This document shows, piece after piece, positions 1 through 64,000 of a DNA stretch of 64,000 bases. The DNA is taken from positions 1 to 64,000 of the IMG/VR virus record IMGVR_UViG_2706795703_000001; one strand, given 5' to 3'. The position numbers and the translations under genes were made by a program. Position 1 is the stretch's first letter. Every line of letters starts with the position of its first letter. The notes under the pieces were generated by a model. That model was not told the DNA's origin, searched no databases, and worked only from the letters and a program-made list of their open reading frames with translations. The stretch comes from a virus (lineage: Duplodnaviria; Caudoviricetes).

Positions 1-1440
1 ATGGCCTCCACTGTCGGAAAAACCACCAGCGTTTCCCCGTCCCAGCTGCACCTATTCCACAAGAACGCCCGCCGGGGCGACGTGCCCGCCATCATGGCCA
101 GCCTGCGCCGCCACACCCAGTACACCCCCATCACGGTCAACGTCGGCACCCACACCGGCCGCCCCAACGAGGTGCTGAAGGGCAACCACACCCTGATGGC
201 CTTCCGCGAGCTGGCCGAGACCGACCCGTTCGATAAGCAATGGCAGAAGATCGCGGTGTTCTGGGTCGACGTGGACGATGACCTGGCAGAACGCATCGTG
301 GTGGCCGACAACCAGATCGGGCGGCTGGGTGGCTTCGATGACGCCCAGCTGGCTGAGCTGGTCAGCGGGTTCGACGGTGACCTGGACGGCCTGGGCTTCA
401 CCGACGCCGACGTGGAGGCGCTGCTGGGGCTGAACGACGAGCCGGGCGGGGACGGTGACCCCAGCGGCGACGGTGGCGGCGCTGCCCCGTCCATTCCGTT
501 GGCTGACCGCTACGGTGTCCCGCCCTTCAGCGTGCTGGACCGCCGGGGCGGGGTCTGGCAGGAACGCAAGCGCGAGTGGTTGTCGGCCGGGCTGGGCCTG
601 GACAACCACGACGGGCGCGAGGAGACGCTGCTGCTGAAGATCGACCCGCAGGGCAGCGACATCTTCAGCACCGCCGTGCAGGCCAGTGGCGGGTCCACCA
701 GTGTCTTCGACCCGGTGTTGTGCGAGGTCGCCTACCGCTGGCACACCCCCGAAATCGACACCCCGGTGTCGGTGCTGGACCCCTTCGCGGGCGGGCCCGT
801 GCGCGGGCTGCTGGCCGGGGCCATGGGCCTGCATTACACCGGCATCGACGTGCGCGCCGAGCAGATCGCGGCCAACCACGCCGCGCTGGGTCGGCGGCCG
901 GAGTACGCCGACCGCGTGACCTGGCTGCACGGGGACGCCACGCGCATGGGTGAGGTGTTGGCCGACGACCAGGCGTTCGACCTGGTGTTCAGCTGCCCGC
1001 CCTACGGTGACCTGGAGTGCTACAACGACGACAACGACCGCGACATCAGCGCCTGGGACTACGAGGACTTCCTGGTCGGCCACGCCCAGGCCATCACCGA
1101 CGCTGCCGCCCGGCTGCGCGACGACCGTTTCGCGGTCTGGGTCACCAGCGACATCCGCGACAAGTCCGGCTACTACCGGGGCCTGGTGTCGGCCACCAAT
1201 GACGCCTTCGCCGCCGCCGGTCTGCGGCTGCTGAACGAAGCGGTCATCGTGGACCCCGTCGGGTCCACCCGCCTGCGCACCGCCCGGCCGTTTGAGGCGG
1301 GCCGCAAGATCGCGCGGATGCACCAGTACATGCTGATCTACGTCAAGGGCGACGTGCGCGCCGCGACCGAGTGGGCCAAGCAGGGACGGGAGTTCGTGGT
1401 ACCCGATGACGACAACGACGACATCGCTGACGCCGTTTAA
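1..1440 (+). CDS. ParB-like N-terminal domain fused to SAM-dependent amino-methyltransferase-fold domain (N4C/N6A type)
   Basis: N-terminus has ParB/Srx-like signature (GNHTLMA, RIVVADNQIG). C-terminus has motif I VLDPFAGG, GID, and motif IV-like LVFSCPPY. Acidic Gly-rich linker between them. Confidence 0.85.
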   Translation: MASTVGKTTSVSPSQLHLFHKNARRGDVPAIMASLRRHTQYTPITVNVGTHTGRPNEVLKGNHTLMAFRELAETDPFDKQWQKIAVFWVDVDDDLAERIVVADNQIGRLGGFDDAQLAELVSGFDGDLDGLGFTDADVEALLGLNDEPGGDGDPSGDGGGAAPSIPLADRYGVPPFSVLDRRGGVWQERKREWLSAGLGLDNHDGREETLLLKIDPQGSDIFSTAVQASGGSTSVFDPVLCEVAYRWHTPEIDTPVSVLDPFAGGPVRGLLAGAMGLHYTGIDVRAEQIAANHAALGRRPEYADRVTWLHGDATRMGEVLADDQAFDLVFSCPPYGDLECYNDDNDRDISAWDYEDFLVGHAQAITDAAARLRDDRFAVWVTSDIRDKSGYYRGLVSATNDAFAAAGLRLLNEAVIVDPVGSTRLRTARPFEAGRKIARMHQYMLIYVKGDVRAATEWAKQGREFVVPDDDNDDIADAV

Positions 1441-2275
1441 CCTGGTCAATGGCCGGTATTACAAGCGCGACGATCTGCACACCGGCGGGGGCGGGACCAA
1501 CGGCGGCAAGCTGCGCAGCTGCCAGGTCATGGTGGGCGACATGCTGGCCGACGGTGCCACCGCCATCATCACCGCCGCCAGCGTCCACAGCCCCCAGCAC
1601 GCCATCGTGGCCAACGTCTGCGCCGCCGCCGGTATCCCCAGCTACCACGTCGTAGGCGGCACCAAGCCCGCCGCCGCCATGCGCTGGCCCACGGTGTCGT
1701 CGGCGGTCGCCGCCGGTGGCCGTATGCACTACGCGCGGGCCGGGTACAACAGCGTCATCCAGCACGCCGCCGCGCGGCTGGCGGGCATGGTGCGCGGGGC
1801 CCAGGTGCTGCCCTTCGGCATTGCCCCGCCAGCTGGTGCCCCCGCGTCGGCCATCCTGCGCATGGCACGGGCCACCGGTGGCCAGGTCAACGGGCTGCCC
1901 GCCGACGTGCGCACCCTGGTGGTGCCGGTCGGCTCCGGCAACAGCGCCATCGGCATAGCCGAGGGCCTGGCGCGCACCGGCCGCCATGATGTGCGCATGG
2001 TGCTGGTGGAAGTCGGCCCGACCCGTCAGCAGTGGGTGACCCAGCGCGCGGCAGCGGCCGGTATCGCGCTGCCCGCGCTGACGTGGGTCAACCTGGAAGC
2101 CCTGGGGTTTGCGAAGTACCACGACAAGATGCCCGAGACCGTCGACGGGGTGGCGCTGCACCCGACCTATGAGGGCAAGGTGGTGCGCTACCTGAACACC
2201 GTCAAGCCCGCGTGGTGGACCGACCGCGACGGCACTACGTGCTTGTGGATTGTCGGCGGCGCGCTTCTGGTGTAG
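1406..2275 (+). CDS. PLP-dependent fold-type II enzyme, ACC deaminase / D-cysteine desulfhydrase-like
   Basis: YYKRDDL..GGTNGGKLR (Schiff-base Lys region), VVPVGSGNS (phosphate loop) and LHPTYEGK match the order of family motifs (KRDD..GGNKxRK, DPVYxGK). Confidence 0.75.
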   Translation: MTTTTTSLTPFNLVNGRYYKRDDLHTGGGGTNGGKLRSCQVMVGDMLADGATAIITAASVHSPQHAIVANVCAAAGIPSYHVVGGTKPAAAMRWPTVSSAVAAGGRMHYARAGYNSVIQHAAARLAGMVRGAQVLPFGIAPPAGAPASAILRMARATGGQVNGLPADVRTLVVPVGSGNSAIGIAEGLARTGRHDVRMVLVEVGPTRQQWVTQRAAAAGIALPALTWVNLEALGFAKYHDKMPETVDGVALHPTYEGKVVRYLNTVKPAWWTDRDGTTCLWIVGGALLV

Positions 2276-2278
2276 CTT
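2250..2278 (+). promoter_or_regulatory. Putative sigma-A promoter TTGTCG-17-TAGCTT
   Basis: Hexamers at 2250-2255 and 2273-2278, followed by the conserved leader hairpin (2292) and an AGGAG RBS before ATG 2327. Confidence 0.5.
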
Positions 2279-2326
2279 CGCGCTCAGCCCGGCGGGACCG
2301 ACCCGCCACCGCTGACAGGAGCACCC

Positions 2327-2515
2327 ATGGACGCCCCCGAGCGTGACCACCTGGACGACCAGGCCCGCGCCGATCTGCCCGGCCTGACCCCGCGCGAGCG
2401 GCACCTGACGCCGGTGCGCTGCACCCGTTGCGCCGCCCGGGTCTACACCTACGCCAGCAGCGCCGACGGGCTGCGCCACTACTGCCGCTGCATCGCCTGG
2501 CTGCCCGCCGCCTGA
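2327..2515 (+). CDS. Small hypothetical protein with Cys pairs (possible Zn-binding)
   Basis: AGGAG RBS upstream; CTRC and CRC motifs; phage-typical codon use. Confidence 0.65.
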   Translation: MDAPERDHLDDQARADLPGLTPRERHLTPVRCTRCAARVYTYASSADGLRHYCRCIAWLPAA

Positions 2516-2558
2516 ACACTTGCCCGACTAGGGCGGGCATCTGCGCTATCATGCGGGC

Positions 2559-3152
2559 ATGAAGCCTCGGATGATTTACCTGGTGGGCCAGCCCGGCGCG
2601 GGCAAGTCCACGCTGATGGCTGCGCTGACCAAGGGCCTGGTGCGCAGCCCCTGGCATGAGCACACCGTGCCCCACGATCAGCTGGTCGACCGCGTGACCG
2701 GCGAGACGGTGGCGGCTGAGCTGGGCGTGCAGCGCGGGGCCTTCAGCGGCACCGACGCGCTGGCCAGCAGCATCATCGACAAGGCCGTTCCGTGGATTCA
2801 GTCGCGCCCCTACGACCTGGTGCTGGCCGAGGGCGCGCGGCTGGCCAATCGGCGCTTCATCGACGCCGCCCTGGACGCGGGCTACGCCGTCACCATCGGC
2901 CTTCTCGACCATGACCAGGCCGACACCTGGCGCAAGCGCCGCAGCAAGGCGCTGGGACGCGAGCAGTCCCCGTCATGGGTCAAGGGTCGGCTGACCGCCA
3001 GCCGCAACCTGGCCGCCCACTACCCCGGCGCGCTGGTCGTCGCCGGGTCGGTCATCCCGGCTGAGCCGGGCAAGGCCATCGTGCTGGCCGGGCACCCCGA
3101 CGAACTCGAGCCGATCTTGGCGGCGGTCATGGCCCAGGACGTCGATGGCTAA
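2559..3152 (+). CDS. P-loop nucleotide/DNA kinase (adenylate-kinase-like fold)
   Basis: Walker A GQPGAGKST at the N-terminus, GTDAL and LAEGARL motifs. TATCAT 6 nt before ATG. Overlaps the terminase start. Confidence 0.8.
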   Translation: MKPRMIYLVGQPGAGKSTLMAALTKGLVRSPWHEHTVPHDQLVDRVTGETVAAELGVQRGAFSGTDALASSIIDKAVPWIQSRPYDLVLAEGARLANRRFIDAALDAGYAVTIGLLDHDQADTWRKRRSKALGREQSPSWVKGRLTASRNLAAHYPGALVVAGSVIPAEPGKAIVLAGHPDELEPILAAVMAQDVDG

Positions 3153-5796
3153 GAAGCCGGAGCTGGAGTTCCCCGACCATGGCAGCGGTGACCCCGCCGT
3201 AGCGGTCTGGCAGTCCGACGGCACGTTTGACACCCAGCGCGCCGAGCAGATATTCGAGGAGACGAAGGACTGGCCGCCGGAGCAGCGCGCGGCCATGCTG
3301 CGGTCGCTGCGCGCGGCTGAGACCCGGGCGACGGTGCGCACCAAGTACCGCCACCCCGCCGAAATGGCGGCAGCGGTGACGCCGGGCTACCGCATCACCC
3401 CCGCGCTGGCGATGATCAGCAACAGCATTGAGCGCGTGCTGAACAGCCACCGGAAAATCAACCTGTCGGTGTCCATGCCGCCGCAGGAGGGCAAGTCGTC
3501 GCTCTGCTCGGTGTGGGCCCCGCTGCGCGCGCTTCAGCTGAACCCCAACCGCCGCATCATCCTGGCCACCTACGCCCAGCCGCTGGCCGACATGCACTCC
3601 CGCAGCGCCCGCGACGTCATCAACGCCCACGGGGCGGGGCTGGTCGACCCGCTGACGGGGCTGACCGTGGAAGACAAGATCGGGCTACGCCTGGCCCAGG
3701 GCGCGAACAAGATCAGCTTCTGGGGCGTAGAGGGTGGTGCTGGGGGACTGCTGGCCGCAGGCATCGGCGCGACCATCACCGGTATGCCCGCCGACCTGCT
3801 GATCATTGATGACCCGTTCAAGAACATGATGGAGGCCGACAGCGCCACCCACCGCAACAATGTGGAGCTGTGGTTCTCGTCGGTCGCGCTGACCCGCCTG
3901 GCCCCCGATGCGTCGATAATCCTCATTCAGTGCATGACCGGCGACACCCCCGTGCTGCGACCTGACGGCACCGAGACGCCGCTTGCCGACATCCGTCCCG
4001 GTGACGAGATTGCCACCTATGAGGACGGCGCGCTCAGCACGGCCACCGTCAAGAACTGGGCCAGTCAAGGCTATGATCGTGTGAGTAAACTAGTATTTGC
4101 ATCAGGACGACAAGTGCGCGCTAACGCTCGTCACCCGTTCCTGGTGGCTCACGACGACGGGACAACCGAGTGGATCAGGCTGGCCGACCTCAAACCGGGA
4201 CATCGCGTGATTGCGACATCGACGGGTGCGAACGACCCCACCACGCCCGAGGACGGTGCAAGTCGCATTGGGCTGCATTGCGGCGCACCGAGCGAGGATT
4301 ACGGGTTCACCCCGAGGGACACTGGGGTAAATGGACCGGCGTCATCTGCTCTGCTGACGGCTGCGACCAGCCCGCCGTCATCGAGCCGGGGCTGTGCCAC
4401 AGCCACTATGACAAGCACAGATGGGCGTCTGGAATCCGGTACCCCTCGCACAGTGGGCGACCTCGCCGCAACGTGCTGCTGCGCAGGCGATACGGCATCG
4501 ACCACGACGAGTACGACCGCTTGCTCGCCGCCCAAGACGGGCGGTGCGCTATCTGCCGCCTTACGGCTGACGAGGCGCGTATGCCAGCGCATTGGAACGG
4601 CTATTTCTGCGTGGATCACGACGAGACGACCGGCGTGCGCGAACTGCTTTGCAACGACTGCAATGTCGGCCTCGGAAGGTTTCACCACGACCCCGCACGG
4701 CTCCGCGCTGCTGCCGACTATCTCGACCGACACATTGCTGCACATCGAACCTGACGGTATTGCCGAGGTGTTCGACATCGAGGTCGAGCGAACCGAGAAC
4801 TTCATCGCCAACGGGCTGGTCAGCCACAATACGAGGTGGCACCCCGAAGACTTGGCGGGCAAGGTACTGGAGGGCGAGCGGCTGCTGGACCGCGAGGAGC
4901 GCACCTGGCGGCACCTGAACATCCCCGCCATCGCGGAGGAGGGCATACCCGACGCCCTGGGCCGCCCGTACGGCGAGCCCATGGTGTCGGCACGTGACAC
5001 CCCCGAGGCCAAGCGGAACTTCGCGCAGACCCGCAAGCAGGTGGGCGAGCGCACGTGGTACGCGCTTTACCAGGGCAGCCCCCGTAACCCAGCTGGCGGC
5101 ATTTTCCAGCGCGCCTGGTTCGACCCCCGCCTACCCCAGCCGCCCAGCTACCCCGTGGCCGCCGTCGTCGGCATCGACCCGGCCGACAGCGGCGAAGGGG
5201 ATGACGCGGGCGTGGTCGGCGGCAGCCTGTACCACGACGGCAAGCAGTCCAAGGTGGCGCTGACCCATGATCGCTCCGGCAAGTTCACCAGCGACCAGTG
5301 GGCCCGCCAGGGCGTCATCCTGGCCCTGGAAATCGGGGCCCGCGTGGTCGCGGTGGAGGGCTACACCGCCGCCAAGACGTACACCCGCGTGGTGCGCCAG
5401 GCATACACCGCCATCCACAACGAGGCCATTGCGGCGCTGAACGCCGGGGCTGAGCTGACCGCCGTGCAGAAGCGCGCGCTGCCCGACATCCCGCCGTTCA
5501 TCATCAAGCCCTGGCGCGGTGCCAGCAAGGCCGACGCGGTGGCGCGGTCGGGCGGGCTGAGCCAGTCGCTGGAGACAGGGCGGTGCCGGACGGTGGAGGG
5601 CGCGCTGGCGGTGTTCGAGAACCAGGCGTGCGACTGGCAGCCCGGTCAGCACCAGCCTGACCGCGTGGCCGCGTCCATCATTGTCCACGACACCCTGATG
5701 GAAATGGCGGGCCAGCAGATGCACGTGGCCGCTCCGGTGCAGCGCAAAACTGCCCCGCCACCTGCATGGATGCGCAGAAGCATTGGGAAAGGTTGA
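3145..5796 (+). CDS. terL: Terminase large subunit, interrupted by an intein
   Basis: MPPQEGKS Walker A, LIIDDP Walker B, IQ|TRWH coupling motif split by the intein, C-terminal nuclease VGIDPA and DRVAA. Confidence 0.93.
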   Translation: MAKKPELEFPDHGSGDPAVAVWQSDGTFDTQRAEQIFEETKDWPPEQRAAMLRSLRAAETRATVRTKYRHPAEMAAAVTPGYRITPALAMISNSIERVLNSHRKINLSVSMPPQEGKSSLCSVWAPLRALQLNPNRRIILATYAQPLADMHSRSARDVINAHGAGLVDPLTGLTVEDKIGLRLAQGANKISFWGVEGGAGGLLAAGIGATITGMPADLLIIDDPFKNMMEADSATHRNNVELWFSSVALTRLAPDASIILIQCMTGDTPVLRPDGTETPLADIRPGDEIATYEDGALSTATVKNWASQGYDRVSKLVFASGRQVRANARHPFLVAHDDGTTEWIRLADLKPGHRVIATSTGANDPTTPEDGASRIGLHCGAPSEDYGFTPRDTGVNGPASSALLTAATSPPSSSRGCATATMTSTDGRLESGTPRTVGDLAATCCCAGDTASTTTSTTACSPPKTGGALSAALRLTRRVCQRIGTAISAWITTRRPACANCFATTAMSASEGFTTTPHGSALLPTISTDTLLHIEPDGIAEVFDIEVERTENFIANGLVSHNTRWHPEDLAGKVLEGERLLDREERTWRHLNIPAIAEEGIPDALGRPYGEPMVSARDTPEAKRNFAQTRKQVGERTWYALYQGSPRNPAGGIFQRAWFDPRLPQPPSYPVAAVVGIDPADSGEGDDAGVVGGSLYHDGKQSKVALTHDRSGKFTSDQWARQGVILALEIGARVVAVEGYTAAKTYTRVVRQAYTAIHNEAIAALNAGAELTAVQKRALPDIPPFIIKPWRGASKADAVARSGGLSQSLETGRCRTVEGALAVFENQACDWQPGQHQPDRVAASIIVHDTLMEMAGQQMHVAAPVQRKTAPPPAWMRRSIGKG
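3931..4830 (+). mobile_element. Intein (300 aa) in terminase
   Basis: Begins CMTGDTPV (Cys1), block B ANARHPF, ends FDIEVERTENFIANGLVSHN, followed by Thr(+1). Removal restores IILIQ-TRWHPEDL. Confidence 0.93.
4170..4754 (+). CDS. Endonuclease VII-family homing endonuclease encoded in the -1 frame inside the intein
   Basis: YGIDHDEYDRLLAAQDGRCAIC...VDHD..G.VRELLCNDCNVGLG...LRAAADYL is the EndoVII pattern. Two N-terminal Cx4C-x8/9-Cx2H motifs. GTG 4170 is the only conventional start before the first motif. Confidence 0.85.
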   Translation: MDQAGRPQTGTSRDCDIDGCERPHHARGRCKSHWAALRRTERGLRVHPEGHWGKWTGVICSADGCDQPAVIEPGLCHSHYDKHRWASGIRYPSHSGRPRRNVLLRRRYGIDHDEYDRLLAAQDGRCAICRLTADEARMPAHWNGYFCVDHDETTGVRELLCNDCNVGLGRFHHDPARLRAAADYLDRHIAAHRT

Positions 5797-63705: not shown

Positions 63706-64000
63706 TCAACCGAACGCGCCCAGCGCGCTGGCCAGAAACACCAGCGACAGCAGCGCGGTCAGGGCGATATAGCCGATCTGCCGCCAGTCGGCTGCTTCGC
63801 GGGCCCGCTCGGTCACCACCGCGTCGTCGTCTTCCCACGGGGACACCCACAACGCCGGGGTGCCGACGCCCGGCCCCAGGCAGCCCCGGCACAAGAACGC
63901 CCCGTCGACGGTCCAGCGCATGTCGGCCCGGTACCGCGTGGTGTCGCAGCCCCGGCACCAGTCCGCGCGGTCATCCAGCAGGCTCTGGACACCGGGCTCC
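63706..64000 (-). CDS. 5'-truncated membrane protein with two CxxC motifs
   Basis: The frame of track ORF 63706..63921 stays open to the window end (..DWCRGC..FLCRGC.., C-terminal TM). Confidence 0.55.
   Translation of the reverse strand, partial: EPGVQSLLDDRADWCRGCDTTRYRADMRWTVDGAFLCRGCLGPGVGTPALWVSPWEDDDAVVTERAREAADWRQIGYIALTALLSLVFLASALGAFG

Follow-up and report, generated by a model that had tools for sequence, protein, structure and literature searches.

The closest described systems are those of Salmonella phage ViI, which makes 5-NeOmdU, and Pseudomonas phage M6, which makes 5-NedU; both use a 5-hmdU DNA kinase, an amino-acid:DNA transferase (AADT) and a PLP decarboxylase (Lee et al. 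2018, PMC5889632; 2021, PMC8989533). The ViI enzyme gp226 is a proven PLP decarboxylase of O-serinyl-thymine in DNA (PMC8989533), and the PLP and P-loop kinase families are both established in thymidine-hypermodification clusters (PMC8989533; bioRxiv 10.1101/2025.08.14.668559). The ParB C-terminal domain is required to activate a thymine dioxygenase (O'Toole et al., PNAS 2026, PMC13229309). Relatives of the phage studied here, in mycobacteriophage Cluster B, carry ParB-TET or ParB-TET-AADT genes at a slot upstream of the kinase-TerL pair; ParB proteins do accompany such loci, as had been proposed.

We analyzed a stretch of 64,000 nucleotides (the window) from a complete mycobacteriophage genome of 72,139 bp. 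A preliminary description of the window had proposed that a ParB-methyltransferase fusion, a PLP enzyme and a P-loop kinase constitute a single hypermodification pathway. All three genes were found where it had placed them, with an overlap of 35 nt between the methyltransferase (MT) and PLP genes and an overlap of 8 nt between the 3′ end of the kinase gene and the start of terL (3145). The features of the locus are as follows.

1-1440, + strand: gene 1, ParB::MT fusion, 479 aa (family matches and motifs)
aa 1-~150 of gene 1: ParB nucleotide-binding domain (phrog_6392, E 2e-84)
aa ~165-479 of gene 1: class-I amino-methyltransferase-type domain (phrog_498, E 3e-109)
778-795, + strand: motif I of gene 1, DPFAGG
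991-1005, + strand: motif IV of gene 1, S-CPPY
1406-2275, + strand: gene 2, ViI gp226-type PLP enzyme (fold type II), 289 aa (family and structure matches)
1508-1510, + strand: Schiff-base lysine of gene 2, Lys35
1931-1942, + strand: GSGN phosphate loop of gene 2
2168-2179, + strand: YEGK motif of gene 2
2291-2307, + strand: leader hairpin GGCGGG-ACCGA-CCCGCC, read from the sequence and followed by the AGGAG ribosome-binding site of the 62-aa ORF
2327-2515, + strand: Cys-rich ORF of 62 aa (family match, phrog_29466)
2519-2552, + strand: promoter-like TTGCCC ... TATCAT, read from the sequence, with its 3′ end 6 nt upstream of the kinase start codon
2559-3152, + strand: gene 4, Ploopntkinase3 P-loop kinase, 197 aa (PF18751, 243 bits)
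2586-2612, + strand: Walker A motif of the kinase, GQPGAGKST
3145-5796, + strand: terL, large terminase, with an intein at aa ~276-562

The small Cys-rich ORF and the two expression signals between the PLP and kinase genes had been overlooked. A 67-aa ORF lies at the matching position in the relative L096, and only one distant copy, in phage Indlovu, was found in the phage collection. terL, which carries no intein in L096, is a neighbor of the cluster and stands outside the modification chemistry.

Gene 1 shares 78% identity with the ParB nucleotide-binding domain of Stinger gp1 over aa 3-147 and is unrelated to this protein beyond. It has a ParB N-terminal domain, a SAM motif I, a PPY catalytic motif and a class-I methyltransferase fold, and the CPPY motif was invariant across 29 members of its MT family. 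Its dN/dS was 0.225 in comparison with the relative L006. By architecture, gene 1 would be a ParB-fused N6/N4 amino-methyltransferase, which may transfer a methyl group, or another portion of SAM, to DNA. The profile searches suggested earlier for the three proteins gave a divided outcome. Gene 2 matched PALP (PF00291, 40.6 bits), gene 1 reached 24.4 bits with the Pfam N6_N4_Mtase model, under the cut-off of 26.7, and the kinase fell outside the characterized 5-HMUDK clades HMUD1 and HMUD2, with PF18751 as its sole match. In the AF2 model of gene 1, block pLDDT was mostly 84-97 in the ParB and MT cores, and the top solved structure in a fold search was aTrm11, an m2G methyltransferase. This search found only generic class-I methyltransferases, the closest being m2G tRNA methyltransferases, and no specific likeness to known 3-amino-3-carboxypropyl (acp) or aminopropyl transferases. 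It does not discriminate methyl transfer from acp or aminopropyl transfer.

Gene 2 matched phrog_3650 (E 2.7e-106) and, by tblastn, the ViI gp226 gene Vi01_182 (orf00226; E 3e-9). Among solved structures, the ACC-deaminase homologue 1j0a was the best match (E 5.5e-12) and D-cysteine desulfhydrase the next. All 49 invariant columns of a 32-sequence family alignment are kept by gene 2, and Lys35, GSGN and YEGK are invariant in the 32 homologues. A pattern search of IMG/VR with the single PLP protein returned no relatives, and an alignment-based search succeeded. Judged by sequence, gene 2 is a true relative of ViI gp226, in agreement with the earlier link to the PLP enzymes of thymidine hypermodification; it may decarboxylate amino-acid:base conjugates in DNA. 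As the match covers only positions 18-255 of the 392-position phrog_3650, a truncated pseudogene was considered. This was rejected because the relatives are all ~285-295 aa and the C-terminal YEGK is present. The dN/dS of gene 2 against L006 was 0.247 (dS 0.4). In the tree, ViI gp226 nests within the AADT-linked PLP clade. The clade of gene 2 splits off at the base of this clade or next to it; FastTree and IQ-TREE differ on whether it falls inside, and the AU test decides for neither placement (p 0.53). Gene 2 may have been recruited from a thymidine cassette or may belong to an old MT-linked lineage.

Six-frame translations of the whole genome were screened with Pfam models and with custom HMMs of the families. 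In the 72,139 bp, this detected neither Tet/JBP nor AADT, and no dUMP hydroxymethylase, ThyA or ThyX. For AADT, neither PF18724 nor a custom HMM built from 72 sequences matched any of the six frames; ThyA and ThyX were included as nucleotide-level sources of modified dUMP. As a positive control, the Tet_JBP search detected the gene in four Cluster B relatives. Thus, the known thymidine route cannot run in this phage. The preliminary description had already reported that AADT, TET/JBP and dUMP hydroxymethylase are absent from the window, which holds for the whole genome, and had suggested that they might lie in the unseen genome end. The latter was rejected, as the complete genome contains no known 5hmU source and no AADT; in the 64-72 kb region, beyond base 64,000, there are only a DUF932 protein, an HNH-like ORF and small genes of unassigned function. 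The kinase accordingly has no 5hmU source (Tet/JBP or dUMP hydroxymethylase) in its own genome to qualify it as a 5-HMUDK, and gene 2 has no partner AADT of the kind that accompanies a gp226/gp52-type decarboxylase. The order proposed earlier, in which the kinase acts first and is followed by amino-acid transfer and PLP tailoring, has no substrate here, since the known 5hmU sources and AADT are missing and the kinase is separate. The earlier suggestion of chemistry unlike the described routes still stands.

The neighborhoods of PLP homologues bear on the same question. Of 84 homologue-encoding loci taken from other sources, 78 had an AADT within ~2 kb of the PLP gene and 75 had a neighboring kinase of the Ploopntkinase3 type. 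A classical pathway could operate cryptically if 5hmU and amino-acid transfer were supplied by unrecognized, non-homologous phage proteins or by the host, with the PLP enzyme and kinase still making hypermodified thymine. Such a pathway would be consistent with the many phage genes that have no family match and with the retention in gene 2 of every residue invariant in the AADT-linked family. However, sensitive family HMMs found no match in six frames, and, with an AADT so regularly found close to the PLP gene, a substitute that is remote or non-homologous would be a rare exception. To our knowledge, Mycolicibacterium smegmatis has no host route to 5hmdU, which also counts against this explanation, and we regard it as highly improbable.

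The kinase is a P-loop kinase of the Iyer/Aravind set with the conserved residues G10-S17, T65-D66, E91-G92, R125 and R128, and, as described earlier, belongs to a family found in thymidine-hypermodification clusters. Its Walker A, GTDAL, EGARL, R125 and R128 recur in the kinases throughout Cluster B, B1 among them. The family occurs in 373 mycobacteriophage records, almost all of Cluster B, and lies directly upstream of TerL in those examined. B1 phages keep the kinase intact without modification genes at the slot; Vortex, for example, has no Tet/JBP. The start codon appears to be a leaderless start behind the gene's own putative promoter, although a strict sigma-70 scan did not report the promoter-like element at 2519-2552 among its sites.

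These observations bear on whether all three enzymes could form one pathway: activation of a base substituent by the kinase, and tailoring by the PLP enzyme of whatever group takes the place of the phosphate, in chemistry unlike the 5hmU route. The frequent pairing of PLP and Ploopntkinase3 genes (75 of the 84 loci) points in this direction, as does the locus L008, where the two genes are adjacent and no AADT lies within 7 kb; both families are also accepted in thymidine-hypermodification clusters (PMC8989533; bioRxiv 10.1101/2025.08.14.668559). The complete genome, however, lacks a hydroxymethyl source or transferase, the putative promoter would make the kinase transcriptionally separate, B1 phages retain the kinase by itself, and MT-PLP modules elsewhere never occur with a kinase at the loci inspected. 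We judge a three-enzyme pathway improbable, and the earlier view of the three genes as one unit did not hold. From their arrangement, ParB::MT and PLP are better read as one unit and the kinase and TerL, coupled in the Cluster B records examined, as a second.

The overlap of 35 nt between genes 1 and 2 is kept in three lineages, L096 and L006 being among the sequences that have it, and a sewage contig of 69,962 bp has its genes in the same order, ParB::MT-PLP-small ORF-kinase-TerL. In Pseudanabaena phage Pam4 gp70, the PLP domain is nested between MT motifs I and IV, and the metagenomic proteins P0134, P0138, P0139 and P0237 are PLP::MT fusions. A PLP-like ORF is located directly downstream of the MT gene in 7 of 80 IMG/VR MT loci. 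Neither kinase, AADT nor TET was found at the fused or adjacent MT-PLP loci inspected, and our literature search found no paper describing MT-PLP fusions. Purifying selection, the kept overlap and the recurrent fusion or adjacency suggest that the proteins of genes 1 and 2 probably cooperate. Pam4 gp70 counts against this in one respect: in our own reading of the Rossmann fold, its PLP domain would sit in a helix-to-strand loop on the side opposite the SAM pocket.

The other 73 of the 80 sampled MT-family loci have no PLP partner and the same invariant CPPY core; therefore, the MT family may simply methylate. Orphan N6-adenine/N4-cytosine methyltransferases often sit upstream of terminase genes, and ParB::MT could be an ordinary one, the PLP enzyme being left from a TET-AADT-PLP-kinase cassette and now having an unrelated or accessory job such as SAH removal. 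ParB-MT fusions beside terminase without a PLP partner (e.g., M. abscessus prophiT37-1 gp72) and the invariance of CPPY with or without this partner fit plain methylation. A leftover origin agrees with the Cluster-B-like contig L010, which carries a full TET-AADT-PLP-kinase-TerL cassette; grouping of the gene 2 clade with the L010 PLP enzyme was not rejected by the AU test. A roleless leftover would be expected to decay, but gene 2 keeps 49 of 49 family-invariant residues with dN/dS 0.25 across dS 0.4, its overlap with gene 1 persists in three lineages, and independent MT/PLP fusions elsewhere favor cooperation over coincidence. We consider methylation with a leftover PLP enzyme rather unlikely.

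Our tentative reading, to which we give slightly less than an even chance as a whole, is that ParB::MT and PLP form one DNA-modifying module in a variable slot and that the kinase is separate. The thymine hydroxylase (Tet/JBP) and AADT would have been lost from the slot in the lineage of the window, where a SAM-dependent amino-methyltransferase-type domain is attached to the ParB nucleotide-binding domain and the next gene, in an overlapping frame, encodes a gp226-type PLP enzyme. This module would modify phage DNA at an exocyclic amine, that of A or C. The target of its PLP partner would be the alpha-amino-acid moiety that stems from methionine, whether in SAM, in SAH or in an acp group already transferred. 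The adduct favored in this reading would arise by trimming of acp to aminopropyl or by movement of aminopropyl from decarboxylated SAM. The kinase would be inherited throughout Cluster B, co-expressed with TerL and dispensable for the MT-PLP module. The product could be plain methylation or a SAM-derived aminocarboxypropyl or aminopropyl adduct; that it is more than a plain methyl seems unlikely. It is distinctly doubtful that the MT domain of gene 1 adds acp to the amine of A or C and the PLP enzyme decarboxylates it to aminopropyl, or that the PLP enzyme decarboxylates SAM first and the MT fold is an aminopropyl transferase, in either case not by methylation. Since the PLP enzyme is kept and paired with a methyltransferase-type enzyme, the phage may make an undescribed DNA mark.

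PLP enzymes are not known to act on DNA outside thymidine hypermodification. Gene 2 is kept under selection though no known route for placing an amino acid onto thymine remains, and it is tied to a SAM-dependent DNA enzyme. If the MT-PLP pair makes a new adduct, a two-gene route would be added to known phage DNA chemistry; in the acp or aminopropyl form, the product would be a cationic hypermodification of a purine or of cytosine, in a phage group growing on M. smegmatis. Should the AADT-linked clade descend from the PLP branch of the window, this branch would link SAM-based and amino-acid-based DNA hypermodification in evolution. Phage DNA marks matter for restriction evasion and enzymatic DNA labeling. 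In Cluster B mycobacteriophages, the DNA-modification cassette varies at the slot that separates ParB from the kinase-TerL pair, and at least six different modification gene sets are located there beside the terminase gene, at least five of them from isolated phages of one laboratory host. This fixed slot is a natural comparison series, and a new mark, if made, would be testable in a well-studied phage group.

Compared with the ViI and M6 pathways, gene 2 and its homologue ViI gp226 share the best template (1j0a), the PLP lysine and the phosphate loop, and near gene 2 there is a P-loop kinase from the same predicted set. Unlike in those pathways, the gene to which the PLP gene is coupled is of methyltransferase type, the genome has neither a 5hmU source nor an AADT, and the kinase falls in the uncharacterized PF18751 clade, whereas ViI gp243 matches PF18747 (HMUD2). 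The ParB-dependent thymine dioxygenase clusters of Stinger, Prince, LilMcDreamy and Rich occupy the same slot, with the kinase and TerL immediately downstream; in gene 1, an MT domain replaces the ParB C-terminal domain, and the dioxygenase is absent. Enterococcus phiFL3A gp36, Listeria B054 gp77 and M. abscessus prophiT37-1 gp72 belong to the MT family of gene 1 (35-43% identity). These temperate-phage fusions, annotated as plain methylases, have the same ParB-then-MT order and are often beside packaging genes; the prophiT37-1 gp72 locus differs from the window in having no adjoining PLP gene. Pam4 gp70, P0134, P0138, P0139 and P0237 are members of the same MT family (47-53% identity), and their PLP domain has the same catalytic motifs. 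They are fused, whereas MT and PLP of the window are separate overlapping genes, and its PLP protein branches at the base of the AADT-linked clade or next to it, outside the MT-fused PLP clades.

The complete phage genome is 72,139 bp long with 69% G+C, and the window is its first 64 kb. Across the kinase gene and terL, the DNA is ~83% identical to Cluster B4-type mycobacteriophages (such as Stinger, Prince, and Fortunato), and identity is far lower elsewhere in the window. The three genes named in the preliminary description were confirmed by family matches, and the reported kinase-terL overlap is present. The features at this end are as follows.

1–1440: gene 1, 479 aa; ParB domain (residues 3–147) and an amino-methyltransferase-type (MT) remainder
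1406–2275: gene 2, fold-type II PLP enzyme; 35-nt overlap with gene 1
2327–2515: Cys-rich ORF, 62 aa, preceded by a leader hairpin
after the Cys-rich ORF, ending 6 nt before the kinase ATG: promoter-like TTGCCC...TATCAT, read from the sequence
2559–3152: kinase gene, Ploopntkinase3 (243 bits)
3145–5796: terL with an intein; start overlapped by the kinase stop codon

The ParB residues of gene 1 share 78% identity with Stinger ParB (gp1), and the remainder, which carries motif I (DPFAGG) and motif IV (S-CPPY), is unrelated to Stinger gp1. The best solved relative of gene 2 is 1j0a, an ACC-deaminase homologue. The Cys-rich ORF has a C-x2-C ... C-x-C pattern and its own ribosome-binding site in addition to its hairpin; only one further copy was found in the phage collection, located at the right end of the Indlovu genome (56% identity). 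A close relative with the same layout (L096) has a 67-aa ORF in this position. The intein occupies aa 276–562 of TerL (Pfam Intein_splicing); TerL of L096 is 582 aa and intein-free.

Gene 2 was compared with 84 PLP loci, namely 80 IMG/VR loci retrieved with the family alignment and four others. An amino-acid:DNA transferase (AADT) gene lies within ~2 kb in 78 of them and a kinase of the window's type in 75; ParB (39/84), a hydroxymethylase-like gene (21/84), and a Tet/JBP thymine dioxygenase (TET) gene (15/84) are less frequent. The commonest order is ParB-(TET)-AADT-PLP-kinase. Gene 2 retains all 49 family-invariant columns (Lys35, the GSGN loop, and YEGK among them) and is on this evidence a genuine member of the PLP family associated with DNA hypermodification. 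Its relatives in the phage collection are limited to Glutamicibacter phage Montesquieu (34% identity), ViI-like Ackermannviridae, and some Vibrio phages; no homologue was found there in any other mycobacteriophage. The ViI match is Vi01_182, labelled orf00226 (gp226), which decarboxylates O-serinyl-thymine in DNA to 5-NeOmdU (PMC8989533). In Montesquieu, the PLP gene is flanked by an aGPT-Pplase/AADT gene and two Ploopntkinase3 paralogues, with a dUMP hydroxymethylase upstream. These tandem paralogues follow the AADT-PLP pair (L005:6866-8059) and are annotated 'ABC transporter' and 'thymidylate kinase'. At two other loci (L008:7879-8861 and L009:1990-2942), the PLP gene is followed by a conserved protein pair (~76 aa and 240–251 aa) with no Pfam match. 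L008 is arranged as ParB-kinase-PLP and has no AADT gene within 7 kb; its 251-aa protein could therefore be an accessory factor or a transferase not yet described.

The preliminary description had placed possible missing pathway genes in the unseen genome end, and the searches spoke against this. The Pfam Tet_JBP and ADDT models gave no match in a six-frame translation of the entire genome; the same Tet_JBP search was positive in Stinger, Prince, Rich, and LilMcDreamy. Custom HMMs (72 AADT, 13 TET, and 21 hydroxymethylase sequences; all filters off) also gave no match in the genome, and the control kinase and ParB models matched at E values of 3e-53 and 5e-50. ThyA and ThyX were not found in the genome. 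On the circular map, base 1 is preceded by small reverse-strand genes, as confirmed by a junction-spanning contig (L006). The right arm past the window carries an HNH-like ORF (64188–64640) and a 462-aa DUF932 protein (68453–69841, reverse strand), neither related to base modification. Judged by gene content, the classical thymidine-hypermodification pathway cannot run in this phage.

The gene content just before the conserved kinase-TerL pair differs from relative to relative, which marks this position as a site of variable cassettes.

Stinger, Julie1: ParB-TET
Prince: ParB-TET-AADT
LilMcDreamy: ParB-TET-AADT and an Asp/Arg-hydroxylase-like cupin
Rich (B5): TET, TET-associated glycosyltransferase, and PIG-L deacetylase
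Vortex (B1): empty; the kinase is gene 1
L010 (IMG/VR fragment): TET (65% to Prince), AADT (72%), PLP (52% to the window), kinase (47%), TerL (50%)

L010 represents the full cassette in a Cluster-B-like phage. A ParB-dependent thymine dioxygenase system was recently described (PMC13229309). The glycosyltransferase and PIG-L-type deacetylase of the B5 slot (L090:1710-3028, Rich) suggest a base-J-like sugar on thymine, possibly de-N-acetylated, in these mycobacteriophages. In RefSeq/GenBank, the Cluster B Tet/JBP gene is labelled 'queuine tRNA-ribosyltransferase' or 'oxidoreductase' (L001:776-1744, Stinger gp2; L091:855-1787; L092:807-1763), and the kinase 'terminase small subunit' or 'adenylate kinase'. 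Stinger gp2 matched Pfam Tet_JBP and the scanned kinases (window, L008, and Montesquieu) matched Ploopntkinase3; the L091 and L092 genes are known by product name only. The DpdA/DpdB reading in the CRB2 paper rests on the same Tet/JBP gene label (PMC6392294).

The kinase occurs in 373 mycobacteriophage records and adjoins TerL in every record examined. Conservation of Walker A and other core positions extends even to Vortex, a Tet/JBP-free phage, and the kinase gene has its own promoter-like element and a leaderless start, both read from the sequence. The kinase is therefore read as a separate unit, and the coupling at this locus is predicted to join the methyltransferase to the PLP enzyme. 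The interpretation given in the preliminary description is partly supported.

The layout ParB::MT-PLP-small ORF-kinase-TerL is repeated in a 69,962-bp sewage contig (90% identity for MT, 95% for PLP), and ParB::MT-PLP was found again in two ENA contigs (~86%). Against the 86% relative, gene 1 had a dN/dS of 0.225 and gene 2 one of 0.247 (dS ~0.4). Among MT-domain homologues, Pseudanabaena phage Pam4 gp70 has a ParB domain followed by an MT domain into which a PLP domain like that of gene 2 is inserted, between motifs I and IV, and four metagenomic proteins (~50% identity) are PLP::MT fusions. The two fusion loci inspected lie in temperate-phage-like DNA with no kinase, AADT, or TET. A PLP-like ORF lies directly downstream of the MT gene in seven of 80 further IMG/VR loci, and these seven contain no kinase, AADT, TET, or hydroxymethylase. 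All MT-fused and MT-adjacent PLP domains retain the lysine, the GSG loop, and Y-[ED]-[GA]-K. The main rival explanation is plain methylation, with the PLP enzyme accessory or leftover. It is favored by the 73 of 80 MT loci without a PLP gene, by the CPPY motif, which is invariant across the MT family, and by the ordinary occurrence of terminase-adjacent ParB-MT genes without a PLP gene, such as in prophiT37-1.

FastTree nested the window's PLP clade within the AADT-linked clade, beside L010, whereas IQ-TREE (mixture model) placed it as sister to the entire AADT-linked clade, of which ViI gp226 is a member, and left the MT-fused and MT-adjacent clades outside. Both placements were retained by the AU test (p 0.53). 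Under either tree, the gene 2 product is placed nearest, among MT-linked PLP enzymes, to the proven DNA-adduct decarboxylases. Gene 2 shares VVPVGSG and GGK with the MT-fused clade, whereas the corresponding states in AADT-linked proteins are VIPFGSG and G[AS]K.

The AF2 prediction for gene 1 is of good quality in both cores (ParB and MT), and its best match is aTrm11, an exocyclic-amine methyltransferase. This fits an N-directed SAM enzyme and is silent on which part of SAM moves. An enzyme of the gene 2 family would need a free alpha-amino acid, and in this genome that could only be the methionine moiety (of SAM or of SAH) or a 3-amino-3-carboxypropyl (acp) group moved to DNA. On these grounds, cooperation of the gene 1 and gene 2 proteins is fairly probable, and a SAM-derived acp or aminopropyl adduct, not methyl, is a rather unlikely DNA product.

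In work on T-hypermodification clusters, PF18751, the family of this kinase, is the marker for the 'P-loop kinase' (bioRxiv 10.1101/2025.08.14.668559), but ViI gp243, the kinase that has been characterised, falls in a different Pfam clade (PF18747). The two Ploopntkinase3 paralogues of Montesquieu parallel the two 5-HMUDK paralogues of ViI. The two-gene arrangement is unusually accessible to testing, since it lies at a hotspot of thymidine hypermodification in a phage group that has been studied well. Its components belong to known families, and their arrangement as two separate genes is an unstudied variant.
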